A stretch of DNA of 64,000 nucleotides from Candidatus Kaiserbacteria bacterium (GTDB taxonomy: Bacteria > Patescibacteriota > Minisyncoccia > Phycocordibacterales > Phycocordibacteraceae): the NCBI GenBank assembly GCA_016182485.1, contig JACPGH010000003.1, forward strand, positions 70,331 to 134,330, given 5' to 3'. The position numbers and the translations under genes were made by a program. A model generated the notes under the pieces. The model made no database searches. It was not told the origin of the DNA and saw only the letters and a list, made by a program, of their open reading frames with translations. Position 1 is the stretch's first letter. Every line of letters starts with the position of its first letter. Shown in pieces: positions 2,939 to 39,417 of this stretch.

Positions 2939-2989
2939 TCTGATAGTGTTTTGGCATCGTCCGCCTTTGCCAAGGCTTCGGCGAGACAA

Positions 2990-3060
2990 GCCGGTATAGT
3001 TCAATGGTAGAACGAAGGACTCATAAGCCTTAAACAATGGTTCGATTCCATTTACCGGCA
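2990..3060 (+). tRNA. tRNA-Met (anticodon CAU, elongator-type acceptor)
   Basis: Cloverleaf: GCCGGTA acceptor, GTTC/GAAC D-stem, anticodon loop CTCATAA, T-loop TTCGATT, acceptor TACCGGC + A. Confidence 0.7.
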
Positions 3061-3118
3061 CCGCGACATTTTGATAGGATTTTGGTAGGATGAAATCGTC
3101 CGCATTAAGTTAGTACAT

Positions 3119-3190
3119 GCGGCTGTAGCTCAACGGTAGAGCGCCGCCCTGTCACGGCGGAGGTCGTGGGATCATCACCCATCAGCCGCG
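3119..3190 (+). tRNA. tRNA-Asp (anticodon GUC)
   Basis: GCGGCTG acceptor, GCTC/GAGC D-stem, anticodon stem CCGCC/GGCGG with loop CTGTCAC; unusual T-loop ATCATCA. Confidence 0.7.
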
Positions 3191-3197
3191 CAGTCAG

Positions 3198-3228
3198 CAA
3201 AATCCGGCGGTGAGCCGGATTTTGCTTT
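3198..3228 (+). terminator. rho-independent terminator after tRNA pair
   Basis: Perfect hairpin CAAAATCCGGC-ggtga-GCCGGATTTTG followed by CTTT. Confidence 0.7.
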
Positions 3229-3305
3229 AAAATCTGCGAGCGTCGGCGAGCAAATTATCCCGACCAAGCCCGTCCCTCGTACCCTGGTACTGCTATGCTA
3301 TCTCA

Positions 3306-16323: not shown

Positions 16324-17272
16324 TCGTATCATGTATGATCCCTCGAAGCCCTATAAGCGCAAGATACTCCGATTGAACAAAAGTACCTGGCAAACGCCGT
16401 ACGTTTCGATACGCGCCGGCACCTACCCGGTCATTACTAAGAAATTCAAAGGTCCGGAAGTCCATCATTCCGATGGCATCGGAACAAAGGGCGTCTACCA
16501 CTGGCGCAAAAGAAGTTTCAAGAATGCGGTTATTGACGCGTTTGCAATGAACGCGAACGATATCGCGATGGCTGGAGCCATACCATACGGGCTCCAAGAC
16601 CACATTGTCGTGCCAGAGGTGGGGGAGCGGGCTATATTGGAGATTATTCGAGCGCTTACCGCACTGTGCCGCAAATATAAGGTCGCGATCACGGGCGGCG
16701 AGACATCCCATCATGACAATGTGGAGGCGCTTGATATCGGCATCGTTATGGCAAGCTTCCTTCCGAAGCCGCGAACCAATCGTTTTAAGCGCGGCGACGT
16801 TCTGATCGGTTTGGAAAGCTCCGGCCTTCATTCGAACGGCTTTACGAAAGTGCGCGGCCTATTCGGTAAGAATGAATGGCGCGCTGATTTTATCCGGCCG
16901 ACTAGCATCTATCTCGATACGATCCGCGGATTTCTCAAGAAATACGAGATACACGGCATGATGCATATCACCGGCGGGGCCTTCACGAAGCTCAAGGATT
17001 TGCTCAAAGACGCAGATGCCATTATAAGCCACCCGAGCAAACTTCAGCCCCACGCCATATTCCGCGAACTTTTCGAGCGGGGCGTTTCAGACAAGCAGAT
17101 GTACACGACCTTTAACTGTGGCATCGGTTTCGTGCTTTCAGTTCCCGAACGCGAAGCGGCAGAGATCATCATGAAAACAAGAAATGCGGCCGTGATCGGC
17201 AAGATAGTGTCAGGCAACGGCCTTGTTCGGATCCAATCGGCCTTCACGGGCAAGACAGTCATCATCTTGTGA
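16307..17272 (+). CDS. PurM-like (AIR synthase-related) protein
   Basis: DGIGTKG motif of the PurM N-domain; length 321 aa. Confidence 0.55.
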   Translation: MRERNNRIMYDPSKPYKRKILRLNKSTWQTPYVSIRAGTYPVITKKFKGPEVHHSDGIGTKGVYHWRKRSFKNAVIDAFAMNANDIAMAGAIPYGLQDHIVVPEVGERAILEIIRALTALCRKYKVAITGGETSHHDNVEALDIGIVMASFLPKPRTNRFKRGDVLIGLESSGLHSNGFTKVRGLFGKNEWRADFIRPTSIYLDTIRGFLKKYEIHGMMHITGGAFTKLKDLLKDADAIISHPSKLQPHAIFRELFERGVSDKQMYTTFNCGIGFVLSVPEREAAEIIMKTRNAAVIGKIVSGNGLVRIQSAFTGKTVIIL

Positions 17273-20692: not shown

Positions 20693-22342
20693 ATGACTAC
20701 CAAATATCTGAATACCGCGCTGGTTCTCGGCGCTTTCGTGTTCGCGCTTTCCGGGCTTGCCGCAAGAGCGCAGGTCAACGAAGCTGCCATTCAGTTTCCC
20801 GTCGCGGAGCTCGGCGGTTGCGGCAGCAAGGAGGAATGCAAGACCTATTGCGACGAGCCGGCGAACATGGAAGCCTGCATCGCGTTCGCCGAGAAGAATA
20901 ATCTGATGCCGCAAGAGGAGGTCCAGATGGCCAAAAAATTCATCGCCGCGGGCGCGAAGGGGCCGGGCGGCTGTACGGGCAAGGATTCCTGCGAATCGTA
21001 TTGCAACGATACGAGCCACATCGACGCCTGCATCTCTTTTGCAGAAGAAGCGGGCATGATGGCTCCGGACGAGCTCGCCGAGGCGAAGAAGGTGCAGGCC
21101 GCGATCAGGAACGGAGTCACGCCGCCGCCCTGCGGCGGGAAGAAAGCCTGCGATTCGTACTGCAGGGAGCCTCAGAACATGCCGGTGTGCATCACATTCG
21201 CCAAACAGGCGGGGCTCATGAGCGAGGAAGAGGCCGCGAACGCGGATAAAATGCTTGTGGCGATAAAGAACGGGGCGAAGCCGCCCGCCTGCGGCGGCAA
21301 AGAAGAGTGCGACGCGTACTGCTCTCAAGAAGAAAACTTCAATGAGTGCGTGGAGTTCGGCAGAGCGGCGGGCTTCATGTCTGAAAAAGATTACGAGATG
21401 GCCAAGAAAACGGGCGGGAAGGGACCGGGCGGCTGTCGCAGAGAAGAATGCGAGACTTTTTGTGAGAATCCGGAAAATCAAGAAATCTGCTTCAGCTTCG
21501 CCAAAGAGCACGGGCTCATATCAGAGGAAGATATGAAGAGAATGGAAGAGGGAGACAAAGGATTTCGCGAGAGCATTTCTAACGCGCCGCCCGAGGTAGC
21601 CGCGTGTCTTAAAGAAAAGCTCGGAGAAGAAAAGGCATCGCAGATCATGAGCGGCTCGGTGCGGCCGTCGCAGGAGATCGGCGAAACGATGAAAGCCTGC
21701 TTCGAACAAGTCATGAGCCAGCGACCGCAAGGCGAGCAGGGGATGCAAAGAGGCCCCGAGGGGCAGATGCCGCCGCAAGGATCCGGCGAAGACAGACCAA
21801 TGCCGCCCGAAGGTTATCAGGGACAAATGCCTCCGGAGGGATACCGAGGCCAAATGCCGCCCGAGGGGTATCAGAGACCTCCGGAAGGCACAATGCCCCC
21901 CGAAGGGTATCGGCCGCCGGAAGGAATGACTGGGCCGATGCCGTACGATGGCCAGCGTCCGCCGGAAGGCTATCAAGGCCAAATGCCGCCAGAGGGATAC
22001 CAAGGTCAAATGCCGCCAGAGGGCTACCAGATGCCTCCGCAAGAGGGTACGATGCCTCCGCCGACAACTGAATCCAGCTCGTCTGGCGGCGGCGAATCAA
22101 GTGGCGCGACAGCTCCCGCGCTTCCGGCCTCCGAGGCCGGAACCCCGACCGATAGCGGAGGGGCCGCACCTGCGCCGGCACTTCCGGCCTCCGAGGCCGG
22201 AACCCCGACCGATAGCGGAGGGGCTGCTCCGGCCCCCGCCCCGACCGATAGCGGAGGGGCCGCCCCAGAAACAAGCCTCCTCTCGCCGAGCTCTCTCATG
22301 GCCGCGGCCATCAACTTCTTCCGCCCCCTTTTCGTGAGATAA
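20693..22342 (+). CDS. secreted protein with six 4-Cys repeat modules and low-complexity PPEGYQGQM and APALPASEAGTPTDSGGAAP tail
   Basis: Signal peptide; six repeats of C-x4-C-x3-C-x(7-8)-C-I-x-F-(A/G)-x3-G-(L/M/F)-M each about 58 aa; degenerate Pro/Gly/Gln repeats. Confidence 0.6.
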   Translation: MTTKYLNTALVLGAFVFALSGLAARAQVNEAAIQFPVAELGGCGSKEECKTYCDEPANMEACIAFAEKNNLMPQEEVQMAKKFIAAGAKGPGGCTGKDSCESYCNDTSHIDACISFAEEAGMMAPDELAEAKKVQAAIRNGVTPPPCGGKKACDSYCREPQNMPVCITFAKQAGLMSEEEAANADKMLVAIKNGAKPPACGGKEECDAYCSQEENFNECVEFGRAAGFMSEKDYEMAKKTGGKGPGGCRREECETFCENPENQEICFSFAKEHGLISEEDMKRMEEGDKGFRESISNAPPEVAACLKEKLGEEKASQIMSGSVRPSQEIGETMKACFEQVMSQRPQGEQGMQRGPEGQMPPQGSGEDRPMPPEGYQGQMPPEGYRGQMPPEGYQRPPEGTMPPEGYRPPEGMTGPMPYDGQRPPEGYQGQMPPEGYQGQMPPEGYQMPPQEGTMPPPTTESSSSGGGESSGATAPALPASEAGTPTDSGGAAPAPALPASEAGTPTDSGGAAPAPAPTDSGGAAPETSLLSPSSLMAAAINFFRPLFVR

Positions 22343-22395: not shown

Positions 22396-22466
22396 TGCCG
22401 GCTCGTCTAAAGGTAGGACACATTCCTCTGGAGAATGTTATTGGGGTTCGAATCCCTGGCCGGCAG
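22396..22466 (+). tRNA. tRNA-Gln (anticodon CUG)
   Basis: U1:A72 pair and G73 discriminator (Gln hallmarks), D-stem GTCT/GGAC, anticodon loop CTCTGGA, T-loop TTCGAAT. Confidence 0.7.
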
Positions 22467-22678
22467 CAAGGAGCGAAGCGACGCAGTCCTGAGGAGTCTT
22501 CGACGAAGGGCATAGTGAGCGAAGCGACGCAGTCCTGAGGAGTCTTCGACGAAGGGCATAGTGAGCGAAGCGGACGAAGGGCATAGTGAGCGAAGCGACG
22601 CAGTCCTGAGGAGTCTTCGACGAAGGGCATAGTGAGCGAAGCGACGCAGTCCTGAGGAGTCTTCGACGAAGGGCGAGT
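22467..22678. repeat. 46-bp tandem repeat, about 4.5 copies, abutting tRNA-Gln 3' end
   Basis: Unit GAGCGAAGCGACGCAGTCCTGAGGAGTCTTCGACGAAGGGCATAGT repeated head-to-tail, one copy with internal deletion. Confidence 0.85.
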
Positions 22679-23336: not shown

Positions 23337-23951
23337 ATGGAAAATATACTAATTAGGACAGAAACCCCACGAGAATACCGGGAAACGGAAAACGTGGTGC
23401 GGGAGGCCTTCTGGGATGTATACAAGCCCGGCTGTGATGAGCATTTGATCATTCATAAGCTCAGGCAATCTCCCGATTTTATTGCGGAGCTGGACTTTGT
23501 CGCTTGCGACGGAGACGACATTGTAGGAGTGGCGATCTGTCCGAAGGCGAAGATAATAAGCGACCAGGGTCAGGAATTCACTGTCTTGTCCATGCTCGTC
23601 GGCGTACTGCCATCCCATCAGAAGAAGGGAATCGGCTCAATGCTTATTAACCGGGTCATAGAAGCGGCGCGGTCTCTGGGACACAAGGGAATCGTCATAT
23701 TCGGCGACCCGAAGTACTATCCGCGGTTCGGATTCAGGAACGCGATGGACTACGGCATACAGACCTCCGACGGGCAAAACCTCGATCCGTTCATGGCTTT
23801 GGAGCTTGGAGAAAACAGTTTGGACGGCATCCGGGGCAGATTCCACGAGGCTCCAGCCTTCCAGCCGATACGCGATAGCGCCGAGCTCGCGGCGTTCGAC
23901 ATGCAGTTTCCGCCTAAAGAAAAGCACGTTACCGATACGCAATTGAAATAG
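23337..23951 (+). CDS. GNAT-family N-acetyltransferase (YhbS-like)
   Basis: Acetyl-CoA binding segment QKKGIGSMLINRVIEAARSLG. Confidence 0.6.
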   Translation: MENILIRTETPREYRETENVVREAFWDVYKPGCDEHLIIHKLRQSPDFIAELDFVACDGDDIVGVAICPKAKIISDQGQEFTVLSMLVGVLPSHQKKGIGSMLINRVIEAARSLGHKGIVIFGDPKYYPRFGFRNAMDYGIQTSDGQNLDPFMALELGENSLDGIRGRFHEAPAFQPIRDSAELAAFDMQFPPKEKHVTDTQLK

Positions 23952-23960
23952 TCAACTAGG

Positions 23961-24359
23961 TCAACAATACAGCGAATAATCCGGGTAGTTATCCCGGACT
24001 TCGCCTTTCCACCAATCGGTCTCCCGTGAACCGCTCACATCTCCTTTGCCGTAGACGAGCAGGACACGCACGAGTTTCTTGTCCTTATGGACCGCGATGA
24101 TGCACCGATTGCCGGAGCCGTGCCGGGATTCTTTCGTGCCGGCGACGCGGAACTCGGTCTTGCAAATCAAAATATTTTTTCTGTCCACGATCGTCTCGAC
24201 GTAGTTATTGATGCCGATAAGCGTTTCGATGCGTTTCAGCTCCTCCTCTACAGCGCGCCAGGTAATGTCCCACGCTCCTTTATATTTCTTACGGAAAGAG
24301 GAGATGAAATGGCGCTCGGCATATTTGGACACCTCGACGCCATAAGGGTCAGTAGACAT
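23961..24359 (-). CDS. putative toxin, RelE/ParE-superfamily-like
   Basis: C-terminal NRCIIAVHKDKKLVRVLLVYGKGD resembles the RelE/ParE YRLIYRV...VYILRVGHRKDVY core; downstream of and overlapping the HTH-Panacea gene. Confidence 0.35.
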   Translation of the reverse strand: MSTDPYGVEVSKYAERHFISSFRKKYKGAWDITWRAVEEELKRIETLIGINNYVETIVDRKNILICKTEFRVAGTKESRHGSGNRCIIAVHKDKKLVRVLLVYGKGDVSGSRETDWWKGEVRDNYPDYSLYC

Positions 24360-25116
24360 ACTCCGGATCTTGCTGGGTGATGAGCTCGTAGGGAATCACC
24401 TCGTCCGGAGCGCACAGTTTGTAAGGCAGCTGCTCGTGCGTGAAGTTCACGATTTCCTGCGTTCTCTTGCGCTTCCACTTCGTGCCGATTTTTTGGATAA
24501 GCTCCTTTTCGCCAGGTTCAAGCAGGCCCAATTTTTCTTGCTCTGCGCCTTCGCTTATCTGCACGAGAATCGCATCGCCTTTGTGATCGAGCGTTATTTT
24601 GCCGTCTTCTTCCAGTTCAGCAACGGCGCGAAAGTACGGATCGGGTACCGGCCCGTATGCGCGGCGAAGATACTGCATGCCGCTCATACTTTCCAAATTT
24701 TCGTAATACCACGCGAAGTCAGCGAGGTAGAGCAGTTTCGCGAGCTTCGTTTTCGGAATTTTCCCGTCGTCCGCCGAAGATTTCGCGGTACGCAGGAATG
24801 CAAGCACCATCTGCTTATACTTTTCGTAATTCGGAATAATCGCATTCGAAAACTCCTCAATTGAAATGCCAAGCAAAGAGCAGAGTCTTTTCGCTTCCGG
24901 CAGGGTCATGTCACGGGCGCCTCTCTCCACCGCCATATACGACTGGCGGGAAAGTCCGATTTTTTCGGCCGCTTCCGACTGCGACAGGCCGCGCTCAAGG
25001 CGCAGCGCCTTGATTAACGACCCGTATTTGGTGCTCATATCTCTATTGTGCATAAACTGTGTATAAAATGCAAACAGGATATGTTGATAATATAGACATA
25101 CGCATGATATAATCAT
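24349..25116 (-). CDS. XRE-HTH + Panacea (DUF4065) domain antitoxin-like protein
   Basis: N-terminal HTH_3 (LRLERGLSQSEAAEKIGLSRQSYMAVERG); C-terminal KLAKLLYLADF...YGPV matches the DUF4065/GepA signature. Confidence 0.65.
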   Translation of the reverse strand: MIISCVCLYYQHILFAFYTQFMHNRDMSTKYGSLIKALRLERGLSQSEAAEKIGLSRQSYMAVERGARDMTLPEAKRLCSLLGISIEEFSNAIIPNYEKYKQMVLAFLRTAKSSADDGKIPKTKLAKLLYLADFAWYYENLESMSGMQYLRRAYGPVPDPYFRAVAELEEDGKITLDHKGDAILVQISEGAEQEKLGLLEPGEKELIQKIGTKWKRKRTQEIVNFTHEQLPYKLCAPDEVIPYELITQQDPEYVY

Positions 25117-25278: not shown

Positions 25279-25315
25279 ATATTACACGATTGTAATATGT
25301 TGCAAGTTGCAATAT
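25279..25315. promoter_or_regulatory. clustered short palindromes in divergent promoter region (candidate operator)
   Basis: ATTACA-cga-TTGTAAT followed by TTGCAA-g-TTGCAA, 13 bp upstream of the XRE start. Confidence 0.3.
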
Positions 25316-25327
25316 ACTGCATAGCAT

Positions 25328-25531
25328 ATGGCGTCAGGAAAAAAATTAGGAGAAAATCTAAGAAAGCTCCGGCTGCGAAGGAAAATGTCGCAAGGAGACC
25401 TTGCGGCCGCCTTGAATGTGGATAGAGCATATATAAGCAATATTGAAAACGGTCGAATGAACCCCACGCTTTCAACCTTGGAAAAAATAGCTGGGGCCTT
25501 AGGAATTTCTAGTAGTGAATTGCTAAAATGA
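25328..25531 (+). CDS. small XRE-family HTH regulator (controller C-protein-like)
   Basis: 67 aa HTH_3; stop codon 1 nt before the start of the 1603-aa gene. Confidence 0.6.
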   Translation: MASGKKLGENLRKLRLRRKMSQGDLAAALNVDRAYISNIENGRMNPTLSTLEKIAGALGISSSELLK

Positions 25532-25532
25532 C

Positions 25533-28500
25533 ATGGCAAGATATCGCACACGATTTGACGCAAAAGCGTATTGGGCAACCAAACCTTGGTGCACAGTCTG
25601 CAAGAAGCACAAAGTTAAAGATGGTGCGGTGTGCTCTGAGTGTAAAAAAGAAGCTATGAAGCAACAACGCGAAATTAATAGAAATAAAGAATCAATCGCG
25701 GACATTCCAGCTGCAGTGGAAGTTCAGGTTTCAGAACCACGAAAAAAGCGCATTTCTAATCTTTCTGCTGAGGCGCAGAATAAAGTCATTCGACTCTTTA
25801 CATACTTGGAAAAAGCTCTCGCCATCGATGATTCCATCGTTCGAGATTTTCGTACTACTTCAGCAGCACCCTCACCATGGTGGCTCGCTGATTATCCAAC
25901 GGATCTTGAGAACCTGACCATCCGGCCTTTTGATACTGAAAAAACTCCTGAAGGAGTACAAGCAACTTCGTGGCTCAAGGTAGAAAAGAAAAACATCAAA
26001 GCTGCACCTGAATTGCCGGACCAACTTAAAGAATGGATTGATGACGTAAATCCACTGCAGGAACCGACTGTTAAAGAAAAGATTGATCGCAAAGTCCTAT
26101 TTACAGATTACAAGGATCGGGAGAAAGAATTCAGAAATTTCCGAAAAGATTATAGGCAAGGAGATGGTGTGCCTGAGAGCTTGAAAGATTGGGTGACGAT
26201 TTTGCCAAATAAGTTACCCGAAATTATCAGTGTGAGATATGAGCCCGATTATTGGGTAGGCCACACAGAACTTACAGAGTTACTTGATGGATACACCAAA
26301 AACGATTGGAAGCCATGGGCAGAGCAGGTGAAGAAAGTTTATAAAGCAAATCTTCTCTACGATCAGCTATACGCCCTCCGTCTTCTTTTGAAAAACGAGG
26401 GAGATAACTATGAATTACTCTTAGGCCAAGGCATCTTGACTTGGCAGCATCAGGGAGTGGGTACAATCTACACCCCAATTTTTCTTAGTCCTCTTACACT
26501 CGATTTTGACGCTTCAAAAAGAACGATTAAGATCAACCCCGACCCCATGTTCAGGAATTTCGTAGAGACATCAGCACTTTACGAGACAGACAATCCAGCT
26601 GAAATGGATCTCGTCACATGGGGAGACACAATCAACGCCAACCCTTTTGATTTTTGGCATCTTGAGACACTCAAAGGTCAGGCACGAACACTCATTAACT
26701 ATGTCTCTCCGTATGGCGAAGATAAGTTCACCGATCAAATTATCTCAGCTCCTACCGCGTCACAGAATCCGAGTATCTGGAATGCACCAGTGATATTTGC
26801 TCGAAAGCGAACAAACGATATGTGGTCAAAGTATGCGGCCACTATTCGCAAAGACATCGAACAGTACGGGATTGAAGCGACTGAGTTCATCACTGATCTT
26901 GTCGGCGAATATGACGAGGTTTCCGTTAAGCTTAACGGCGGATCTGGAGAGAAAATGGAAAGTGACAGCATATCTATCCCAGAATCAGAGCTCCATTTTC
27001 CATTGCCTTGGAATGATGAGCAGAAAAGGATCGCAGAAAGGCTAGATGCAAACTATGGTGTCGTAGTAAAGGGGCCGCCGGGAACTGGAAAAAGTCATAC
27101 CATCGCAAACTTAATTGCCCGCTTCTTAGCAGAAGGCAAGAGCGTTTTAGTCACATCTCAAACAAGTAAGGCTTTGGAGGTATTGCGTGACAAGCTACCC
27201 GAAAACATCAGAAGTCTTGCCGTATCTCAGTTACAACAATCTGCGAAGCGAGACGACATACTCCAACAGTCAATTGGTGAAATTAGTTCTAATCTTGGCG
27301 AACGTGACACTAAATTTAGTGAAGCTCGAGCGGAAAATATTCGTAGAGAACTAAAGAGAGTAAGAGAAGAAAAAGCTGCTCTCGCGGCAAAGATACGACA
27401 GTACATCCTAACCGATTCATCGGAAAAGTTGATTATTGAGGGAGAAGAGATTAAACCTATCGATGCTGCAAAGTTTGTCGATAAGAACAAAAACCATAAG
27501 GCAATCGCCTGGTTTACTGATAAGGTCCCATTCGACGCCGATCCTAAATTTACTGAGGAAGATTTGCAGGAGCTATATGATATCGCTCGAGCTGTAGAGG
27601 CCGTAGATCGTACTCTCTATAAGGAAGACTTACCTGATCCATCGATCCTTCCAAATGAGGACGTGGTACTTAGCGCCTTTGCCTCGTATCGCGATTTCAG
27701 CGCGAAATCAAAATATTCAACAAATGGAGCGTTCAGCGAAGCGAAGATTGATCAAGAAAAACTTGGTCAACTGTGGGAACTTCTACATAAAGCCAAAAAG
27801 GTGTTGATGTCGATCAATAAAAATTACGAACAGGAAATATTTAACGCGTGTGCAATTAGTCAGAATGAGCGTGAGAAGTGGTCGTCTATCCTCTCAAAAA
27901 TCTCAGAGAAAATTCGGATCACTGCTAAAGGAAAAAACAGCACGATTGGTCACGTCATCTCTGGTCAGTCAAACCTTTCCATACATGATCTGCGGGAGGC
28001 GGCAGAAGCTTTGTATGCAAAAACATCAAAGGGCCAGCTGGGAACGTTCAGTAGAATGCTCCTATCTGGAAACGCAAAACGAATCCTTGAGACCTATAAA
28101 GTTGATGGGGTTGAACCTGATAACCCAGAGAGGGCAGAAATTCTGCGAAATTCTATACTTGTTGAAGAAGCAGAACGTGATATTAAGATTCTTCTCGAAC
28201 AGGGCCTTTCAACTATCAAGAACCAGCCTGAAATCGATGTCGATCATCTCGATATGATTCAGCTCGAAGTATTTGTTTCAGGTCTTCAGAGATTGGTAAA
28301 TTACCACGCCGACTTTTCAGCTATTGATTCTTGCTTTAATGAAGTGAAGGAACTTTCCGACTTCTCATTCACGAAGAAAGAAGAGATTGAAACTGCTATT
28401 GAACTAACTGCATCACATGCGGCTTCTTTCGAGCTCAAGAACCTAGAGAAGTCATTCACTGAATGGGAAGACTCAATCCGATCATCTGTGAATTTCCGTA

Positions 28501-30344
28501 TACAGCATGCTATCGTTGATGATCTTACTCAGGCAATCGCAAAACGTAACTCTACGGGATGGAAAAACTGTGTCGAGGAGCTTGATTTGCTTGTCGCGAA
28601 GAAAGAAAAGGCAATCAGACTTAGTGAGTTGTGCGATAAGCTTAGAAAGCAAGTACCTCGGCTTTGTGAGGAGATTATTGAGCTTGCCGATCAGAAACAG
28701 AGATTTGATTGCCCGGAAAATCTACTCGTTGCATGGAAAGTTGCTCGACTTGAATCGTGGCTCGACAGCATTCATGACCATGACGACATTGATACTTTGC
28801 AGGACCAGCTTGAACGTCTAAGCAAAAAGGAATTCGAGCTTAATTCCGAGCTTGTAACTGTGCTTGCTTGGCAGCGTCAAATCGACAAAGTTACCAAACG
28901 CCAACGCGATGCTTTGATGGCTTGGTCTGACGCAATGAAAAAGTACGGTAAGGGACTCGGAAAATACGCGAACAAATGGCTCAACTCGGCTCAACAGTCC
29001 CTCAAGGAAGCAAAAAATGCAGTTCCAGTTTGGATCATGCCCTTGCACCGGGCAGCTCAGATGTTCTCGGATCCTACTCCGGGTATGTTCGACGTAGTGA
29101 TTTTCGACGAGGCGAGTCAGTGTGATATTCGTGGTCTAACTATCGGATATCTCGGTAAGAAATTACTCGTTGTGGGCGATGATGATCAAATTAGTCCAGC
29201 TGGAATCTTTCAGGATCTAGAAAAGACATTCGAGCTCATTTCTCGATTCCTCTTCGATATTCCTCATAAAGACAATTTTTCAATTACCTCAAGTCTATTT
29301 GATCTCGCAAAAATCCGCATGCCGAACCTGATTCAACTAAATGAGCATTTCAGATGTGTTCCGGACATCATTGGTTTTAGTAATCACTATATTCCAGGAT
29401 ATAACCACAAAATTCAGCCGCTCCGTCATCCTAATCCAAAAGGTCTTCTTAAGCCTGCGCTTGTGCCAAAATTAGTAGAAGGTGGGTATCAAAACACCAA
29501 TAACAAAGTAAACGAACCTGAAGCAAAGGCGATTGTCGAGAAGCTTGTAGAGCTTCTTGAAGATCCGAATTACCAGAAGCGGCCGGATGGCCGTCTCTGC
29601 ACCTTTGGGATTATTTCTTTGCTTGCAGAGGACCAAGCAAAATACATCAAAGATTTAATTTTGAAGCATCCGAAGATCGGAGAGAAGATAATCGAAGAGA
29701 GAAAGATTATCTGTGGAGATGCATATGCCTTCCAAGGCGATGAGCGTGACGTAATGCTTTTGTCTATGGTAAGAGCGCTTGACCCGAACAATCTGAATGA
29801 TACAGTTGCACCTCTTATCGACAAAGGGGCAGCACAGCGCTTCAATGTGGCAGCTACTCGCGCACGCGATCAAGTATTTCTCTTTCATTCCATTCCTTTG
29901 GAACAATTCCGAAATCAAAACGATTGGCGCTTCAAGCTCCTCAATTGGTACTACGATCCAAAGAAAGAAGAAATTAAAGCGGGTCGTGAAGCGCTCAAGA
30001 GAGAATTCGATTCAGGTAGAGCGTCACAATTCTCGTACGAAGTCGGGAATCTTATCCTGGATAAAGGCTATCGGGTCTTGCCTGAGTATCCGCTGATTGG
30101 TTACCGTATTGATCTTGTTGTGCAGGGTGCCGAAGCTCGTCTTGCGGTCGAATGTGACGGGGATCAATATCACACGCTCGAAAATTGGGAAGAGGATCAA
30201 ACACGTGAACGTCAGCTACGTCGTGCTGGTTGGGAATTCTGGCGCGTAACCGGCAGTTCCTTCTATCGCCATAAAGAAAAAGCACTCTATAGTCTTTGGA
30301 AAAAGCTCGATGAACTTGGGATCAAGCCGATAATTGATTCTTAA
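25533..30344 (+). CDS. DUF4011 + superfamily-1 (Upf1-like) helicase + C-terminal DUF559/Vsr-like endonuclease, Hhe-like defence protein
   Basis: N-terminal Cys4 ribbon CTVCKK...CSECKK; DUF4011-like LLLGQGILTW block; Walker A GPPGTGKSHT; Walker B VIFDEASQ; C-terminal GYRIDLVV...ECDGDQYH DUF559 motif. Confidence 0.8.
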   Translation: MARYRTRFDAKAYWATKPWCTVCKKHKVKDGAVCSECKKEAMKQQREINRNKESIADIPAAVEVQVSEPRKKRISNLSAEAQNKVIRLFTYLEKALAIDDSIVRDFRTTSAAPSPWWLADYPTDLENLTIRPFDTEKTPEGVQATSWLKVEKKNIKAAPELPDQLKEWIDDVNPLQEPTVKEKIDRKVLFTDYKDREKEFRNFRKDYRQGDGVPESLKDWVTILPNKLPEIISVRYEPDYWVGHTELTELLDGYTKNDWKPWAEQVKKVYKANLLYDQLYALRLLLKNEGDNYELLLGQGILTWQHQGVGTIYTPIFLSPLTLDFDASKRTIKINPDPMFRNFVETSALYETDNPAEMDLVTWGDTINANPFDFWHLETLKGQARTLINYVSPYGEDKFTDQIISAPTASQNPSIWNAPVIFARKRTNDMWSKYAATIRKDIEQYGIEATEFITDLVGEYDEVSVKLNGGSGEKMESDSISIPESELHFPLPWNDEQKRIAERLDANYGVVVKGPPGTGKSHTIANLIARFLAEGKSVLVTSQTSKALEVLRDKLPENIRSLAVSQLQQSAKRDDILQQSIGEISSNLGERDTKFSEARAENIRRELKRVREEKAALAAKIRQYILTDSSEKLIIEGEEIKPIDAAKFVDKNKNHKAIAWFTDKVPFDADPKFTEEDLQELYDIARAVEAVDRTLYKEDLPDPSILPNEDVVLSAFASYRDFSAKSKYSTNGAFSEAKIDQEKLGQLWELLHKAKKVLMSINKNYEQEIFNACAISQNEREKWSSILSKISEKIRITAKGKNSTIGHVISGQSNLSIHDLREAAEALYAKTSKGQLGTFSRMLLSGNAKRILETYKVDGVEPDNPERAEILRNSILVEEAERDIKILLEQGLSTIKNQPEIDVDHLDMIQLEVFVSGLQRLVNYHADFSAIDSCFNEVKELSDFSFTKKEEIETAIELTASHAASFELKNLEKSFTEWEDSIRSSVNFRIQHAIVDDLTQAIAKRNSTGWKNCVEELDLLVAKKEKAIRLSELCDKLRKQVPRLCEEIIELADQKQRFDCPENLLVAWKVARLESWLDSIHDHDDIDTLQDQLERLSKKEFELNSELVTVLAWQRQIDKVTKRQRDALMAWSDAMKKYGKGLGKYANKWLNSAQQSLKEAKNAVPVWIMPLHRAAQMFSDPTPGMFDVVIFDEASQCDIRGLTIGYLGKKLLVVGDDDQISPAGIFQDLEKTFELISRFLFDIPHKDNFSITSSLFDLAKIRMPNLIQLNEHFRCVPDIIGFSNHYIPGYNHKIQPLRHPNPKGLLKPALVPKLVEGGYQNTNNKVNEPEAKAIVEKLVELLEDPNYQKRPDGRLCTFGIISLLAEDQAKYIKDLILKHPKIGEKIIEERKIICGDAYAFQGDERDVMLLSMVRALDPNNLNDTVAPLIDKGAAQRFNVAATRARDQVFLFHSIPLEQFRNQNDWRFKLLNWYYDPKKEEIKAGREALKREFDSGRASQFSYEVGNLILDKGYRVLPEYPLIGYRIDLVVQGAEARLAVECDGDQYHTLENWEEDQTRERQLRRAGWEFWRVTGSSFYRHKEKALYSLWKKLDELGIKPIIDS

Positions 30345-31983: not shown

Positions 31984-34900
31984 ATGTCCAGGAAGGCAGT
32001 TGAAACCTACATTTCCAGCGTTGACGAGAAATTAAAGACAGGGCAAGCTCGCGAACATGCCTATCGCCCGTGTTTTGAAGCTTTAATTCATGCACTTGAT
32101 CCAAAACTCAAAATCGTAAACGATCCCTCGCGTAGCGAGCACGGCAACCCCGATTTTGTCTTTTTACGCGGAGATATCACAGCAGGGTATGCGGAGACGA
32201 AGGATCTCAACGATGATCTTGATAAAACTGAGAAATCGGAACAAATGAAACGCTACCTCGGCTACTCGAATCTCATTTTGACCGATTATCTCGAATTTCG
32301 GTTTTTCAGAAACGGCTCACGCTACGGCGAGCCGATTCGTATCGCAACTGTATCCGGCGGAAAACTCGAAGAGAGGACAGAAACATACGACGAACTTGCA
32401 ACTGCGCTCGCCGACTTTCTCGCTGGTACTCCCGAGCCGATCAAGAACGGAAAGCGTCTTGCCGAGATCATGGGCGGTAAAGCGCGGCGCATTCGTGACA
32501 ATGTACATCGTTTTCTCACAGATAAAGCCGACAGCGATACTGACCTTCTACGAATATATGAGTCGATCAAGAAAATGCTCGTCCACGACCTCCCGCTTGA
32601 GGCGTTTGCCGATATGTACGCGCAAACGCTCGTCTACGGTCTTTTTGTCGCACGCTATCACGACGACTCCGTCGATACATTCTCTCGCTCCGAGGCACGC
32701 GACCTCGTGCCGGAATCGAATCCTTTTTTGCGTCAATTCTTCAACCACATTGCTGGACCGGACTTCAACAAACGCCTGCGCTATATCGTGGACGAATTGT
32801 GCGTGGTGTTCGCCACGGCGAATGTGCGTGAATTGATGGAGCAATATTTCAAGCTGGATTTATGGGGAAAGGAACATGGGGGGCCAGATCCAGTTATTCA
32901 TTTCTACGAGGATTTCCTCAAAGAGTACGACGCGGAGCTGCGCAAGAAAATGGGCGCGTACTACACACCACTCCCGGTTGTGCGCTTTATCGTTCGCGCT
33001 ATAGATCATGTGCTCAAGACGGATTTCGGACTTGGGGATGGCCTCGCCGATACAACCAAACTCTCCGATGGAAGGCACAAGGTGCAAGTGCTCGATCCGG
33101 CCGTCGGCACCGGCACGTTCATCAGCGCTGTCATTCGCAACATCTACGAGCGATTTGTGAAGCAGGGTCAAAAGGGCCGATGGCCGACCTATGTCCACTA
33201 CGACCTCCTGCCGCGCATCCACGGCTTCGAGCTAATGATGACCGCCTACACCATCGCGCACTTGAAGCTCTCCATCGCGTTCAAACAAACAGGCTTCACC
33301 ATTTTTAACAAGCGGCTTGGCATCTATCTCACTAACTCGCTCGAAGAAGCGGGACCGCAAACCGACATGTTCTCACTCGGCTTCGCGCAGAGCATCGCGG
33401 AGGAAGCAAAGCAGGCGGCGGTTATTAAGAACGAGACTCCAATCATGGTTGTCCTCGGTAACCCGCCGTATTCAGGAGAATCGAGTAACGCATTTTACAA
33501 GGAACACGATGCTTACAAGATCGAGCCCACGGGCGGCAAGCTCAAGGAGCGCAACAGTAAATGGATCAATGATGATTATGTAAAATTCATTCGGCTTGCA
33601 GAAAGTTTGGTAGAGAAGAACGGCGAGGGTGTGGTCGCAATGATAACAGCACACGGCTATCTCGATAATCCTACATTCCGCGGAATGCGTTGGCATCTAA
33701 TGCAGACGTTCGAGAAAATTTACGTACTCGATTTGCACGGAAACGCAAACAAAAAGGAAAAGGCCCCTGATGGAAGCGAAGACAAGAATGTCTTTGACAT
33801 TATGACTGGTGTCTCTATTTTGATCGGAGTAAAGCACAAGAAATCCGCGGATAATCTTGCAACTGTCTTTCGCGCCGATTGTTTTGGCGCTCGAAAATTA
33901 AAGATAGATTTTTTGGAATCAAATTCGCTCGATACAATTTCTTGGCAAAAACTCAGACCATCCGCTCCCAATTATGAATGGGCAGCAAATGACGGCGAAG
34001 TAAGTGACGAGTATAAAAGAGGATTCTCTGTAACTGAACTCTTCACAGTTTCTAGTGTCGGTATCGTCACGTCGCGAGACGATTTTGTCATAGATATGGA
34101 CAAGCATACCCTCAGCAGACGAATTGAGGGATTTTTACAATCTGCAACGACCCAAGAAGCTCTCTCGAAATATGGTCTTAAAGAAAACCTGAAGTGGAAG
34201 GCAGTACAGGCTCTCAAACATAAGTACGACGAAGCACGCGTTATTCCAGTGAGTTACCGTCCCTTTGATTCTCGCTTCATCTACTACCATGACGATTTCA
34301 TTGAGAGACCGCGCGGAGAGGTAATGCAGTATTTTGTCGGTCACGAAAACATAGGTCTTGTCACAAACAAACGCATTGAAGGACCTCGCAAGTTTGCAGA
34401 TGCATTTTTATCCGATTGCGTTACTGATGCACGACGCGTTTCTTTAAAAGAGACGAACTATATTTTCCCACTTTATCTCTATGCAGAGGACGGTACGCGG
34501 GTATCAAATTTGAGCCAGGGCATCATGACACAGATCGCGAATTCGCTTGGTAGCGAACCGTCTCCGGAGAATATCTTTTATTATGTTTACGCAGGCCTTC
34601 ACTCACCGTCGTATCGAGAGAAACACAACGATTTTTTGAAAGCCACTTTCCCGCGCGTTCCTTATCCTAAAGACAAAAATCAATTTATGGGGCTGGCAGC
34701 GTTGGGCAAGGAATTACGCGAGCTTCACTTGCTCGAATCGCAGAAGGTGCGCAAGTACATAACATCATATCCTGAAAGCGGCTCGAATGTCGTCGAAAAG
34801 ATTGCTCGCAAGGGCGACGGAGTATATATCAACGAAACGCAACACTTCGGCGGTGTGCCGGATATTGCATGGAACTTCTATATTGGCAGCTACCAGCCTG

Positions 34901-35028
34901 CTCAGAAATGGCTCAAAGACCGCAAAGGTCGCACGCTCACGAACGAGAACATCGAGCACTACCAAAAAATCATCGTCGCCCTTGTCGAGACAGATCGAAT
35001 AATGAAAGAAATAGACAAAGCAGTATGA
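31984..35028 (+). CDS. MmeI-like Type IIG/IIL restriction-modification enzyme (nuclease + N6-adenine MTase + TRD)
   Basis: N-terminal PD...E-x-K (GNPDFVF...GYAETKD); MTase motif I DPAVGTGTF; motif IV NPPY (VVLGNPPYSG); about 350-aa C-terminal region. Confidence 0.7.
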   Translation: MSRKAVETYISSVDEKLKTGQAREHAYRPCFEALIHALDPKLKIVNDPSRSEHGNPDFVFLRGDITAGYAETKDLNDDLDKTEKSEQMKRYLGYSNLILTDYLEFRFFRNGSRYGEPIRIATVSGGKLEERTETYDELATALADFLAGTPEPIKNGKRLAEIMGGKARRIRDNVHRFLTDKADSDTDLLRIYESIKKMLVHDLPLEAFADMYAQTLVYGLFVARYHDDSVDTFSRSEARDLVPESNPFLRQFFNHIAGPDFNKRLRYIVDELCVVFATANVRELMEQYFKLDLWGKEHGGPDPVIHFYEDFLKEYDAELRKKMGAYYTPLPVVRFIVRAIDHVLKTDFGLGDGLADTTKLSDGRHKVQVLDPAVGTGTFISAVIRNIYERFVKQGQKGRWPTYVHYDLLPRIHGFELMMTAYTIAHLKLSIAFKQTGFTIFNKRLGIYLTNSLEEAGPQTDMFSLGFAQSIAEEAKQAAVIKNETPIMVVLGNPPYSGESSNAFYKEHDAYKIEPTGGKLKERNSKWINDDYVKFIRLAESLVEKNGEGVVAMITAHGYLDNPTFRGMRWHLMQTFEKIYVLDLHGNANKKEKAPDGSEDKNVFDIMTGVSILIGVKHKKSADNLATVFRADCFGARKLKIDFLESNSLDTISWQKLRPSAPNYEWAANDGEVSDEYKRGFSVTELFTVSSVGIVTSRDDFVIDMDKHTLSRRIEGFLQSATTQEALSKYGLKENLKWKAVQALKHKYDEARVIPVSYRPFDSRFIYYHDDFIERPRGEVMQYFVGHENIGLVTNKRIEGPRKFADAFLSDCVTDARRVSLKETNYIFPLYLYAEDGTRVSNLSQGIMTQIANSLGSEPSPENIFYYVYAGLHSPSYREKHNDFLKATFPRVPYPKDKNQFMGLAALGKELRELHLLESQKVRKYITSYPESGSNVVEKIARKGDGVYINETQHFGGVPDIAWNFYIGSYQPAQKWLKDRKGRTLTNENIEHYQKIIVALVETDRIMKEIDKAV

Positions 35029-35900: not shown

Positions 35901-35956
35901 CAGTCCCATCGCAAACGAATTAGGACAGAAACCACATGACTACATGAAAGTCAGTC

Positions 35957-36706: not shown

Positions 36707-37342
36707 TTGTTAATGAAAGCCGTCGCTTTTATTGATGCTTCGAATCTGTCATATGGCGGCCAGAAGTCGTTAGGGTGGAGTATTGACTATGCGAAGCTCA
36801 GGGAGTATCTGACTGAAAAATATGGGATTGAGAAGGCATATTACTTCGGAGGAATTGAAATTCATGGACACCCGTTCGATTATTTGAAGTATGATTCTGT
36901 GCCAATAAGCCAAATCGAGAGATATCTTTCTGATTTGATAACGCGTGCCGGGCCAAAAATGACTGAAGCACAATTGGTTCTCGCCGACAGGCATCTCAAA
37001 AGAGTTCGCTTCTATAGGAAGCTAGCGGAATTTGGATATCGTCTGGTGTTAAAACCAGTAAAGTCTTATGAAGACGATGATGGGAACAGGCGCCGGAAAG
37101 CAAATTGCGATGTGGATATGGCTTTCTACATGATGAAAGAAATTGACTCTTATAATAGAGCCGTTGTTTTATCAGGCGATGGAGATTTTTTGCCAGTACT
37201 AAAACACCTGAGATCAATCGGTAAAGAAGTAATCATTCTCGCTCGAAGTCCCCGGACTGCGAAAGAAATAAAGCAATTTGCGGGAGCCGATTTTAGGGAT
37301 TTTGAATATTTAAGGGAACGTATCAAGCAGAAAGACGTGTAA
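36707..37342 (+). CDS. NYN/LabA-like (PIN-related) domain protein
   Basis: AFIDASNL N-terminus, NCDVDMAF and VLSGDGDF acidic motifs characteristic of LabA/NYN. Confidence 0.65.
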   Translation: MLMKAVAFIDASNLSYGGQKSLGWSIDYAKLREYLTEKYGIEKAYYFGGIEIHGHPFDYLKYDSVPISQIERYLSDLITRAGPKMTEAQLVLADRHLKRVRFYRKLAEFGYRLVLKPVKSYEDDDGNRRRKANCDVDMAFYMMKEIDSYNRAVVLSGDGDFLPVLKHLRSIGKEVIILARSPRTAKEIKQFAGADFRDFEYLRERIKQKDV

Positions 37343-37510
37343 ACAGCGAGCGGCACCCGTTTAGGATGCCGCTCAAGTCTGGTGTGCCTATTATAATCCG
37401 CTTATCGTTAATAATCAATGGTTGATGTTAATTACATTAATCATTGATTGCTGTCAAGCCCCCATCCTTTTTAGTGGGCAGGTGGAATATAAACACGTCT
37501 TCATTGAAAT

Positions 37511-37524
37511 AGTACGAACGTACT
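37511..37524. promoter_or_regulatory. putative LexA operator (AGTACG-AA-CGTACT)
   Basis: 6-2-6 inverted repeat 14 bp upstream of the lexA start codon. Confidence 0.45.
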
Positions 37525-37537
37525 ATATACTGGCGGT

Positions 37538-38107
37538 ATGAAAGACGGCCGGGCAAAGGTGCTGGAATTCTATCGGCAGAGGCGGCGCATGCCCTCCTAC
37601 CGCGAGATCATGCGGCTTATGGGCTACCGCTCGCTCGCGTCGGCGCAGTGGCTCGTGAAGAGTCTCGCAGAAGCCGGGGTGGTGGCCAAAGATAGGGCGG
37701 GCAAGCTTATCCCGAAGCATCCGTTCGGAGAAACGAAACTGCTCGGCGTTGTGGAAGCGGGGTTCCCCTCCGCGGCTGAAGAAGAATTGCTCGACACCAT
37801 CAGCTTCGACGAATATCTCACGCCGAATAAGGAAGCGAGCTACATCTTGAAAGTGAAGGGCGACTCGATGCAGGAGGCCGGCATTTGCGAAGGCGACATG
37901 GTGATCGTCGAGCGGCGTCAGACCTTCAAGCCGGGGCAGATCGTCGTCGCGTCGATTGACGACGAGTACACGATGAAATATCTGCGCAAGAATCAGCGCG
38001 GCTATTATCTCGAACCGGCGAACGCGAAGTACCAGCCGATCTATCCCAAAGACGGCGAGACGCTCGCTGTGGAAGCGGTGGTCACGGCCGTGGTGCGCAA
38101 ATATTAG
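37538..38107 (+). CDS. lexA: LexA repressor
   Basis: N-terminal wHTH, S24 peptidase motifs VKGDSM and catalytic K in IVERRQ...; 189 aa. Confidence 0.85.
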   Translation: MKDGRAKVLEFYRQRRRMPSYREIMRLMGYRSLASAQWLVKSLAEAGVVAKDRAGKLIPKHPFGETKLLGVVEAGFPSAAEEELLDTISFDEYLTPNKEASYILKVKGDSMQEAGICEGDMVIVERRQTFKPGQIVVASIDDEYTMKYLRKNQRGYYLEPANAKYQPIYPKDGETLAVEAVVTAVVRKY

Positions 38108-38109
38108 AC

Positions 38110-39417
38110 ATGGCGTGGGGCAGTGTACAGGCGTATCCCCGGGCGATCCTCCACATAGACGGAGACGCTTTCTTTGCCGCTTGCGAGGTCGCCAAGGACC
38201 CAGCGCTGCGCGGCCGGCCGGTCATCACCGGCAAGGAGCGCGGGATAGTCTCCGCCGCGACCTACGAGGCGAAGGCTCGCGGCGTCACGCGCGGCATGAC
38301 TCTCTCGGAGGTAAAGAAAGTTTGCCCGGACGCTGTCATCCTGCCCTCCGACTACGAGACGTACAGCCTATTCTCCAATCGGATGTACGCAATCGTGCGG
38401 CGCTACACGCCCGCGGTAGAGGAGTACAGCATTGACGAGTGCTTCGCTGACCTCACCGGCTTGCGCCGCTCTTTGCGCTTGTCCTACCCGCAGATGGCCG
38501 AACGGATAAAGCTCGAATTGGATAGCGAGCTCGGCATGACCTTCTCTCTCGGCCTCTCGGCGACCAAGACGCTAGCCAAGATCGGCTCGAAATGGAAGAA
38601 GCCTTCGGGCCTGACGCTTATCCCGCTCTCCGCCGCTGAGAGCTATCTCAAGCAGTTGTCGGTCGAGAAAGTCTGGGGCATCGGCCCGAACACCACGGCT
38701 TTTCTCAATAAGCACGGCGTGAGAACGGCCGCCGATTTCGCCAAGCGGGACGAAACGTGGGTACGGGGGCAGCTCTCGAAGCCGTTTTATGAGACGTGGC
38801 GGGAACTGCGCGGGGAAGTCGTCTTCGAGCTCGACGCGATCGGCCGGGAGAGCTACCAATCGATCAGTAAGACGAAGACCTTCACGCCGCCCTCGACCGA
38901 CCCGGCCTTTGTGCTCTCGCAACTATCGAAGAACATCGAGAACGCGTGCATCAAGGCGCGCCGCTGGAATCTAGTTACCTCCCAAGTGGCGTTTTTCTTA
39001 AAAACGCAGGATCTCAAATATTATGGCTATGAGCTTGCGCTCTCGCACCCGACGAACGTGCCGCAGGATGTGCTCAAGGTTGTCTCCGAATATTTCAGAA
39101 AAGTTTTTAAAAAGAATACGCAGTATCGGGCGACGGGCATCACGCTCTTGAAGCTCGCTGAGAATCAGTCGCCGCAACTCGATCTCTTCGGGGCGGTAGA
39201 GGCGACGGGCAAGATCCAGAGAGTCCTCGAGAGCGTGGACGCGATATCCGAGCGATACGGGAAGCACGCGGTCTTTCTCGGTTCCTCCTTTCAAGCAATG
39301 ACGCACACGGCTCATCTCGGCGACCGCGGCGACACGGCCAAGCGCGTCACCGATCTCTTCAAGGGCGAGACCCGCCGCCAGCGCCTCGCCATCCCCATGC
39401 TCGGCGAGGTAAAATAA
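38110..39417 (+). CDS. dinB: DNA polymerase IV (Y-family)
   Basis: ILHIDGDAFFAACE catalytic start, SIDECFAD motif; immediately follows lexA. Confidence 0.85.
   Translation: MAWGSVQAYPRAILHIDGDAFFAACEVAKDPALRGRPVITGKERGIVSAATYEAKARGVTRGMTLSEVKKVCPDAVILPSDYETYSLFSNRMYAIVRRYTPAVEEYSIDECFADLTGLRRSLRLSYPQMAERIKLELDSELGMTFSLGLSATKTLAKIGSKWKKPSGLTLIPLSAAESYLKQLSVEKVWGIGPNTTAFLNKHGVRTAADFAKRDETWVRGQLSKPFYETWRELRGEVVFELDAIGRESYQSISKTKTFTPPSTDPAFVLSQLSKNIENACIKARRWNLVTSQVAFFLKTQDLKYYGYELALSHPTNVPQDVLKVVSEYFRKVFKKNTQYRATGITLLKLAENQSPQLDLFGAVEATGKIQRVLESVDAISERYGKHAVFLGSSFQAMTHTAHLGDRGDTAKRVTDLFKGETRRQRLAIPMLGEVK

Follow-up and report, generated by a model that had tools for sequence, protein, structure and literature searches.

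The Helicase-Nuclease Gene and Its Domains

We analyzed a 64,000-nucleotide (nt) stretch of contig JACPGH010000003.1 from a Candidatus Kaiserbacteria metagenome-assembled genome (MAG), which will be referred to as the window, and describe here a gene on its + strand that encodes a helicase-nuclease of 1603 amino acids (aa). An earlier reading, made from the letters of the window without database searches and called the sequence-only reading below, had placed an open reading frame (ORF) at 25533-30344, and this ORF was confirmed, uninterrupted and with an ATG start. The exact protein is found at NCBI as MBI2409682.1, annotated as "AAA family ATPase" (Candidatus Kaiserbacteria MAG, 150-kb contig). 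As had also been proposed, the gene is not solitary: a 67-aa helix-turn-helix (HTH) gene of the C-protein type ends 1 nt upstream, and two nuclease-type genes lie downstream, encoding a DUF2779 protein and then a Type IIG/IIL enzyme in which PD...ExK occurs. The features of the locus are collected in Table 1.

Table 1: Features of the helicase-nuclease locus, with positions as numbered in the window.
Feature	Position	Strand	Details
132-aa ORF	23961-24359	-	no Pfam match; 11-nt overlap with the SocA/Panacea gene
HTH + SocA/Panacea protein (255 aa)	24349-25116	-	divergent neighbor, in the low-GC (guanine-cytosine) island
Operator-like palindromes upstream of the HTH gene	25279..25312	+	ATATTACAcgatTGTAATAT (25279-25298), TTGCAAgTTGCAA (25300-25312)
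67-aa HTH_3 regulator, C-protein-like	25328..25531	+	HTH_3 2.8e-19 (Pfam); PADLOC Control_protein 3.4e-18
Helicase-nuclease gene	25533..30344	+	ATG start, 1603 aa, uninterrupted ORF
Predicted Cys4 zinc-ribbon leader	25590..25643	+	C20, C23, C34, C37 inside conserved aa 1-47
N-terminal domain, aa ~80-470	25770..26942	+	no Pfam model
Helicase domain 1A, first half	27012..27332	+	Walker A GPPGTGKS aa 514-521, motif Ia
~550-aa all-helical insertion	27333..28982	+	Walker A to Walker B stretch
Helicase motifs II-VI	28983..29972	+	DEASQ (1192-1196), GDDDQISP, LNEHFRC, GDAYAFQGDERD (1395-1406), NVAATRAR
C-terminal Vsr-fold PD-(D/E)XK endonuclease (MTES_1575)	30030..30308	+	D1527, E1540, D1542, H1547
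517-aa DUF2779 protein MBI2409683.1	30349..31902	+	Pfam DUF2779 1.8e-32
1014-aa Type IIL/IIG restriction-modification enzyme	31984..35028	+	N-terminal PD...ExK, N6 methyltransferase, Type_ISP_C target-recognition domain

The layout given by the sequence-only reading, an N-terminal module followed by an Upf1-like helicase of superfamily 1 (SF1) and a Vsr-fold endonuclease, proved correct by Pfam and by motifs, and every motif that it had quoted is present, including the two CxxC pairs, the DUF4011-like block, Walker A near aa 513, Walker B, GDAYAFQGDERD and the terminal GYRIDLVV...ECDGDQYH segment. The helicase assignment was borne out by Pfam matches to AAA_11 (aa 494-773, E 8e-10) and AAA_12 (aa 1254-1450, E 1e-11), with AAA_30 and AAA_19 also matching the region of helicase domain 1A, and by invariant motifs. 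Motifs I, Ia, II (DEAxQ), III (GDxxQ), IV, V and VI (TRAr) are all present and conserved; Walker B reads VVIFDEASQ (aa 1188-1196), and the Walker A region does not vary across an alignment of 120 homologues. At the C-terminus, MTES_1575 matched aa 1500-1592 with an E of 4.5e-26 and 91.2 bits versus a cutoff of 38.2. GYRIDLVV lies at aa 1523-1530 and VECDGDQYH at aa 1539-1547, and all 120 homologues share the catalytic acidic and histidine residues D1527, E1540, D1542 and H1547 without exception. This nuclease had been called Vsr-like (DUF559). The second name fell just short, with a Pfam score of 19.5 bits for DUF559 versus a cutoff of 20.6, whereas the first is correct because MTES_1575 was defined as a "Novel Vsr-REase" (restriction endonuclease) fused to SF1 helicases (PMC3710099).

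Walker A and Walker B are 665 aa apart, and the helical insertion found in this stretch is the least conserved part of the protein in the 120-homologue alignment. AlphaFold2 (AF2) modeled aa ~639-1079 of the insertion confidently as all-helical (predicted local distance difference test, pLDDT, about 80-90), for which Foldseek found no structural counterpart in the Protein Data Bank (PDB). In the AlphaFold model that had been proposed for comparison with Upf1/Dna2 structures, this insertion alone was confident: the model of aa 480-1603 had a mean pLDDT of 54, with values below 50 for motor and nuclease, and gave no Foldseek match against the PDB at E<0.04. Because the motor and nuclease thus received no fold-level confirmation, the domain claims rest on hidden Markov models (HMMs) and motifs.

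In a profile search of the PDB the nearest solved relatives by sequence were Sen1 (5mzn, 1.1e-9), Dna2, Upf1 and IGHMBP2, the matches to Dna2 and IGHMBP2 also falling in the first half of domain 1A. All seven motifs of these Upf1-like helicases occur in the query, and as in Dna2 a PD-(D/E)XK nuclease is joined to an SF1B motor. However, the nuclease of Dna2 is N-terminal and RecB-like, whereas that of the query is C-terminal and of the Vsr fold; the query also differs from Upf1-like helicases in its domain 1A, which is split by the 550-aa helical insertion, and identity is very low. Judged by its motifs, the protein has an SF1B (Upf1/Sen1/Dna2-like) ATPase motor that is intact, though a helical insertion of ~550 aa splits it. 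SF1B enzymes translocate 5'->3' along a single strand, and the same 5'-3' polarity would be expected of this motor from its family.

Comparison with Hhe, ProA, PDC-S37, and Mokosh

The protein had further been described as Hhe-like. Hhe is reportedly a single-gene system from Gao et al. 2020, and DUF4011 is the domain that gives it its name (NF042953, "DUF4011 domain-containing anti-phage protein Hhe"). Hhe and the query are both one large polypeptide with the order N-terminal module, SF1 AAA_11/AAA_12 helicase and Vsr-fold nuclease with catalytic acidic residues, and they are homologous over helicase motifs II-VI and the nuclease (aa 1151-1595). In contrast to Hhe, the query has no Pfam DUF4011, carries a Cys4 leader, is about 200-300 aa shorter without a C-terminal extension past the nuclease, and belongs to a family whose genes usually share an operon with an HTH gene and another nuclease gene. 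Hhe is reported to be active against lambda, T3, T7 and PhiV-1, and the nuclease mutation E1731A abolishes this defense (bioRxiv 10.1101/2022.06.16.496414).

The defense HMM sets of PADLOC-DB v2.0.0 and NCBIfam release 20.0 were used for the comparison with named systems. The NCBIfam Hhe model (NF042953) scored 100.8 bits versus a cutoff of 2000, in two stretches within aa 1151-1595, and the PADLOC Hhe model (PDLC02194, E 3e-27) aligned aa 1165-1595 with model positions 1361-1783 of 1911. Thus, the likeness to Hhe holds for the layout and the C-terminal third, but membership in Hhe was rejected in view of this score, the restricted alignment and the lack of DUF4011. The best-scoring named models were ProA and PDC-S37, to which Walker A, the long insertion, motifs II-VI and the nuclease all align, whereas the N-terminal third of the query stays outside the alignment. 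ProA (NCBIfam NF058533) scored 221.6 bits (1.5e-65) with aa 481-1594 on positions 638-1705 of 1903; this is far from its equivalog cutoff of 1500, and with the N-terminal third unaligned membership was rejected here too. PDC-S37 (PADLOC PDLC05009, 1550 positions) gave 191.8 bits (E 4.4e-57, output without a curated cutoff) with aa 497-1594 on positions 298-1340, leaving the protein N-terminus and the C-terminal 210 positions of the model unmatched. No description of ProA or PDC-S37 was found in the literature searched, and the two were compared by profile alignment. For reference, three DUF4011-type Hhe/ProA-like proteins (at loci L053, L062 and L063; L numbers denote loci of homologues) reached 896-1368 bits (900-1400) on the Hhe/ProA models, which is still under the equivalog cutoffs, yet about ten times the score of the query. 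From these partial, low scores it follows that the protein shares the motor-plus-nuclease module with the Hhe/ProA group and is a member of none of them. By profile comparison it belongs to an unnamed family that is Hhe-like in its C-terminal third only.

Matches to the Mokosh models MkoC (5e-30, aa 926-1483) and MkoA (7e-21; PADLOC output, without cutoffs) raise the question of RNA targeting, in which phage transcripts would be unwound or scanned by an Upf1-like motor, leading to RNA-guided or RNA-triggered nuclease action or to abortive infection. The nearest solved helicases, the RNA helicases Sen1 and Upf1, would fit this scheme, as would a match to TIGR00376 (IGHMBP2 family, NCBIfam, 1.4e-17). 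Nevertheless, the effector of the present protein is a Vsr-fold DNA endonuclease domain, its usual partners are DNA nucleases (Cas4-like, DEDD exonuclease, PD-(D/E)XK), the phospholipase D (PLD) nuclease of Mokosh is absent, and SF1B helicases of the same clade (Dna2, IGHMBP2) also act on DNA. We therefore hold RNA targeting to be quite unlikely.

The N-Terminal Region and the Cys4 Leader

The DUF4011-like block (ELLLGQGILTWQH...PIFLSPLTLDFD) lies at about aa 294-325 and includes LLLGQGILTWQH...IFLSPLTLD at about aa 295-323. The DUF4011 domain that the sequence-only reading had assigned did not stand: a Pfam search of aa 1-500 gave zero matches to DUF4011 (PF13195), even at E<=10. An exhaustive profile search with aa 78-470 yielded 913 representative proteins at E<=0.001, whose N-terminal domain (N-domain) has the core YDQLYALRLLLKNEGDxYELLLGxGxLTW...PxFLxPLxLDFD. 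Among 28 sampled members of this family, Pfam detected AAA_11, AAA_12 and MTES_1575 in all 28, DUF3320 in two and DUF4011 in none. In the reverse test, an iterated HMM built on 35 N-terminal regions of the DUF4011 type, taken from more distant helicase-nucleases, recovered neither the query nor any member of the N-domain family. Since the Pfam search up to E<=10 gave no match and the 35-region HMM never reached the query, membership in DUF4011 was rejected. Profile-profile comparison (hhalign) of the N-domain with DUF4011 gave a weak signal (P 0.0023, 12% probability; with deeper alignments P 4e-4, 34%), the aligned cores being ELLLGxGxLTW...PxFLxPLxL in the N-domain and LyLaxGxLxW...APLlLxPvxL in DUF4011. 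It is plausible that the N-domain is a very distant relative of DUF4011 in the same architectural position. By the profile searches, the N-terminal ~400 aa mark out a large family of their own, for which Pfam has no model.

The two CxxC pairs that had been read as a Cys4 ribbon (C20xxC23, C34xxC37) are present in the query, but the leader is kept in just 89 of the 120 close homologues; all 63 long members examined from the wider N-domain family lack it. AF2 gave a pLDDT of 83-85 over aa 11-40. A leader 70% identical to this one (aa 1-47) also stands at the start of P0147, a 630-aa fragment from an ENA metagenome that is an otherwise different helicase with a bona fide DUF4011 domain. This suggests a small zinc-ribbon module shuffled between defense-type helicases. 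In two further homologues, P0080 and P0100, the N-terminal ~100-150 aa contain an extra segment of ~65 aa after or replacing the zinc ribbon (e.g., ILKEIIDFLKINPGVKARKISSFLNYEKRYVNKLLYEYSG), which had no Pfam match and looks like a winged-helix or Z-alpha-type domain.

Relatives and Probable Mobility

Close homologues of about 1600 aa are 60-90% identical over the full length and come from MAGs labeled Kaiserbacteria, Saccharibacteria, Levybacteria, Woesebacteria, Paceibacterota, Spechtbacterales and, in one case, Flavobacteriales. In eight loci (L001, L004, L005, L007, L008, L009, L015, L018) a large serine recombinase adjoins the gene. In the window, the GC content of the stretch holding the gene is 0.43-0.46, compared to 0.55-0.60 in the flanks, and this low-GC island sits between tRNA-Gln and tRNA-Phe/Arg, which favors foreign DNA in the form of a mobile defense module. 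The genes near the relatives include AbiV, DUF3800, TerB_N, a reverse transcriptase, Ltp lipoprotein and Type_ISP_C methyltransferases. The family probably moves between bacteria of the candidate phyla radiation (CPR) on mobile islands. Among the 2.9 million viral contigs of IMG/VR just two distant relatives were detected; it is therefore not a typical phage gene, and a phage origin was rejected.

In L001, two large serine recombinases that are 74% identical (2536-3858 and 15800-17101) bracket a segment of ~13 kb that looks like a discrete mobile island. Besides the HTH-helicase pair, it holds genes for an Ltp-type lipoprotein, a ParB-N6_N4 methyltransferase and a nucleoside deoxyribosyltransferase as well as a MazG-like gene. 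Two distant members, L036 (91-12022) and L050 (261-12184), are situated downstream of Type_ISP_C methyltransferases. In L036 the neighboring genes encode an SF2 helicase, a methyltransferase-S24 peptidase fusion and a protein of the uracil-DNA glycosylase (UDG) family, and in L050 genes for a methyltransferase, an HSP70-TPR protein and a UvrD-like protein are closely spaced on the same strand. Both may represent larger composite defense loci.

The HTH Gene and the Partner Nucleases

The HTH gene stops with TGA (25529-25531) 1 nt ahead of the helicase ATG (junction TGAcATG). The same junction was observed in six of seven HTH-bearing loci (the window, L001, L006, L007, L018 and L020); the exception is L015, where the HTH gene stops 3 nt before the helicase ATG. 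A palindrome scan placed the two palindromes ~50 nt 5' of the HTH start. The first recurs in L001 as TATATTACActgtTGTAATATA, and L015 and L018 have different palindromes at an equal distance. The two palindromes of the window overlap a weak promoter-like site, TTGTAA-17-TATACT at 25290-25318 (9/12 matches, with site counts not above those in shuffled sequence). C proteins autoregulate restriction-modification operons through palindromic operators, and the palindromes upstream of the HTH gene could function as such a C-box. The arrangement resembles C-protein-controlled restriction-modification operons in its small HTH_3 gene directly upstream, the coupling to a nuclease gene and the palindromes, but differs in that the conserved module has no cognate methyltransferase. 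At L004 (7676-7996) and L008 (2724-3125) a conserved ORF of ~106 aa replaces the HTH gene and stops 1-4 nt before the helicase ATG.

The ATG of the DUF2779 gene lies 4 nt past the helicase TAA, and an AAGGA runs across this stop codon. This start was preferred to TTG at 30334, which was rejected as ATG 30349 fits both the protein recorded at NCBI and the reach of the homology; a 477-aa Logan call is too short. The N-terminal part of the protein carries a Cas4-like PD-(D/E)XK nuclease (D98, E113-x-K115; Cys14, Cys208, Cys210, Cys219) and the C-terminal part a DEDD-type exonuclease (D303-x-E305), and these motifs are conserved over eight helicase-linked orthologues. Published analyses of the DUF2779 family agree with this reading as Cas4-like and DEDD domains (PMC13621843, PMC3985635). 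Compared to the solo-Cas4/DUF2779 protein MMSYN1_0389 (PMC13621843), the two-nuclease architecture and the conserved D/E/K residues are shared, whereas four Cas4-type cysteines are kept here and two in the Mycoplasma protein, and the gene here is linked to the helicase-nuclease gene.

To count partners, we used 17 nonredundant close loci with downstream sequence. DUF2779 is the next gene in seven (the window, L004, L007, L008, L010, L020 and L022), and in the six besides the window it starts <=12 nt downstream of the helicase gene. Three loci have DUF2130 (L003, L016, L018), a PD-(D/E)XK family (PMC3424549), and one has a pair of PDDEXK_1 genes (L019), so that a PD-(D/E)XK-type nuclease gene lies directly downstream in 11 of the 17. 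DUF2779 comes after DUF3800 and AbiV in L015, and the remaining loci have unrelated genes downstream.

With such a partner, the protein could be seen as a machine for DNA end resection or repair, working with the Fe-S Cas4/AddB-like DUF2779 nuclease-exonuclease in the manner of AddAB, AdnAB or Dna2 and serving recombination or replication of the element or repair of host double-strand breaks. Dna2 is among the PDB relatives, DUF2779 combines the DEDD exonuclease with a D...ExK and a 1+3 arrangement of cysteines as is typical of Cas4/AddB nucleases (PMC13621843), the gene after DUF2779 in L022 encodes the exonuclease VII large subunit, and serine recombinases adjoin. We nevertheless regard this explanation as unlikely. 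The distribution is patchy and the gene sits in a low-GC island; HTH control of the C-protein type is typical of toxic restriction genes, the neighbors are defense genes, and the strongest profile matches are to models of defense proteins. Moreover, a partner nuclease that is interchangeable or absent is unlike a fixed two-subunit repair enzyme.

The Type IIL Enzyme and Other Genes of the Island

The 1014-aa enzyme downstream of DUF2779 reached 951 bits with PADLOC REase_MTase_IIG and 2.5e-83 with Pfam Type_ISP_C. Its best PDB match is 7lo5 (a 1029-aa adenine methyltransferase, 1.4e-48), followed by LlaBIII and LlaGI, and its nuclease motif is P56-D57...E71-T-K73. The helicase-nuclease might belong to a composite Type ISP/Type I-like system, in which it would form the translocase-nuclease arm and the 1014-aa protein the methyltransferase and specificity arm, so that unmodified DNA would be cut and self DNA protected by methylation. 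The two genes are adjacent on the same strand, 82 nt apart in the window, and homologous Type_ISP_C methyltransferases occur upstream of the two distant members L036 and L050. However, the 1014-aa protein already makes up a complete single-chain Type IIL/IIG enzyme on its own, as judged by its N-terminal PD...ExK motif, its full-length REase_MTase_IIG similarity and the 1029-aa chain of 7lo5. The Type IIL gene is missing beside the closest helicase relatives, and a methyltransferase is lacking beside L001, L004, L005 and L008 (85-87% identity) as well as L003 and L006-L010 (65-67%). The three co-occurrences in about 40 loci are unremarkable because restriction-modification genes are the commonest residents of defense islands. 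With no conserved linkage and a complete Type IIL enzyme, the composite system was rejected as very unlikely. On this comparison, the 1014-aa enzyme is a complete, separate defense system in the island.

Upstream of the palindromes and on the opposite strand, the SocA/Panacea gene and the overlapping 132-aa ORF (23961..25116) look like a toxin-antitoxin pair of the Panacea type. An imperfect 25-nt direct repeat (22/25 identical) brackets the low-GC island at 23348-23372 and 35915-35939, the latter copy 14 nt past tRNA-Arg, and may be an att remnant. Directly after tRNA-Gln (22396-22467) and ahead of a small GIY-YIG gene, a 46-nt unit, GAGCGAAGCGACGCAGTCCTGAGGAGTCTTCGACGAAGGGCATAGT, is repeated in tandem ~4.5 times over 22471-22674. 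A 549-aa ORF at 20693-22342 (GC 0.59-0.64), with tandem repeats of 60 nt at 22105-22266, shows a weak match of the collagen-like/Gly-rich type. Just beyond the island (36707-39417), an NYN-domain protein is followed by an S24 peptidase (LexA/UmuD-like) and, after 2 nt, by DNA polymerase IV; the latter two are a pair of the SOS-mutagenesis type.

Proposed Function

Taking the domains, the operon and the neighborhood together, we propose that the single-polypeptide helicase-nuclease is probably an effector against phages or mobile elements that is carried as cargo by small mobile islands in CPR/Patescibacteria. A defense role would be supported by the homology of the helicase-plus-nuclease part to the defense models PDC-S37, ProA, MkoC and Hhe. 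In the proposed mechanism, the N-terminal module would recognize a nucleic-acid feature of the invader, for example, a DNA end or a replication intermediate, the SF1B motor would translocate 5'->3' on a single strand, and the Vsr-fold domain would nick or cut the DNA. The co-transcribed DUF2779 protein, with its Cas4-like nuclease and DEDD 3'-5' exonuclease, would process or degrade the resulting ends. The 67-aa HTH protein would autoregulate the operon via the palindromic operators in the manner of a C protein, possibly limiting toxic effects upon entry of the island into a new host.

Several points weigh against this proposal. No named defense model in PADLOC or NCBIfam matches over the full length, with scores far under the cutoffs, and the closest solved helicases, Sen1 and Upf1, act on RNA. 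The AF2 model of motor and nuclease did not yield their domain arrangement. Neither companion gene is obligatory: the HTH gene occurs in about half of the loci only, and the partner nuclease is variable and absent in 5-6 of the 17 loci. No recombinase was found in the island of the window among the ORFs scanned (22.7-37.3 kb). Finally, a defense role of the family is deduced from sequence and from guilt by association in MAG contigs, which is a weak form of argument.

The helicase-plus-Vsr-nuclease class of defense proteins is already known, and it is the different N-terminal domain and the habitual second nuclease that are new, as far as sequence comparison tells. More tentatively, and with less confidence than we place in the effector role, we suggest that the cassette of HTH gene, helicase-Vsr nuclease and DUF2779 (or another PD-(D/E)XK nuclease) could be an unnamed defense system. 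Its sensor would be the new N-terminal domain family of >900 clusters, and it would have spread recently among widely differing CPR/Patescibacteria lineages on serine-recombinase islands, as one of few defense modules characteristic of these episymbionts with reduced genomes.

The family is likely to be overlooked in censuses of defense genes because its annotation says "AAA family ATPase" only and PADLOC-DB v2.0.0 and NCBIfam 20.0 match it partly. The N-domain profile, with 913 representatives, could serve as the starting point for a dedicated family model. The points worth following are the conserved spread in CPR and the large N-domain family without a model; the mechanism holds no surprise. 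To our knowledge, the immune repertoires of CPR bacteria have been little explored. If the cassette is a working defense system, it would add a distinct branch to the helicase-plus-Vsr-nuclease class, of which Hhe is the member with published phage-protection data, and it would mean that CPR bacteria exchange a highly conserved defense module, with 60-90% identity over MAGs labeled as different candidate phyla.

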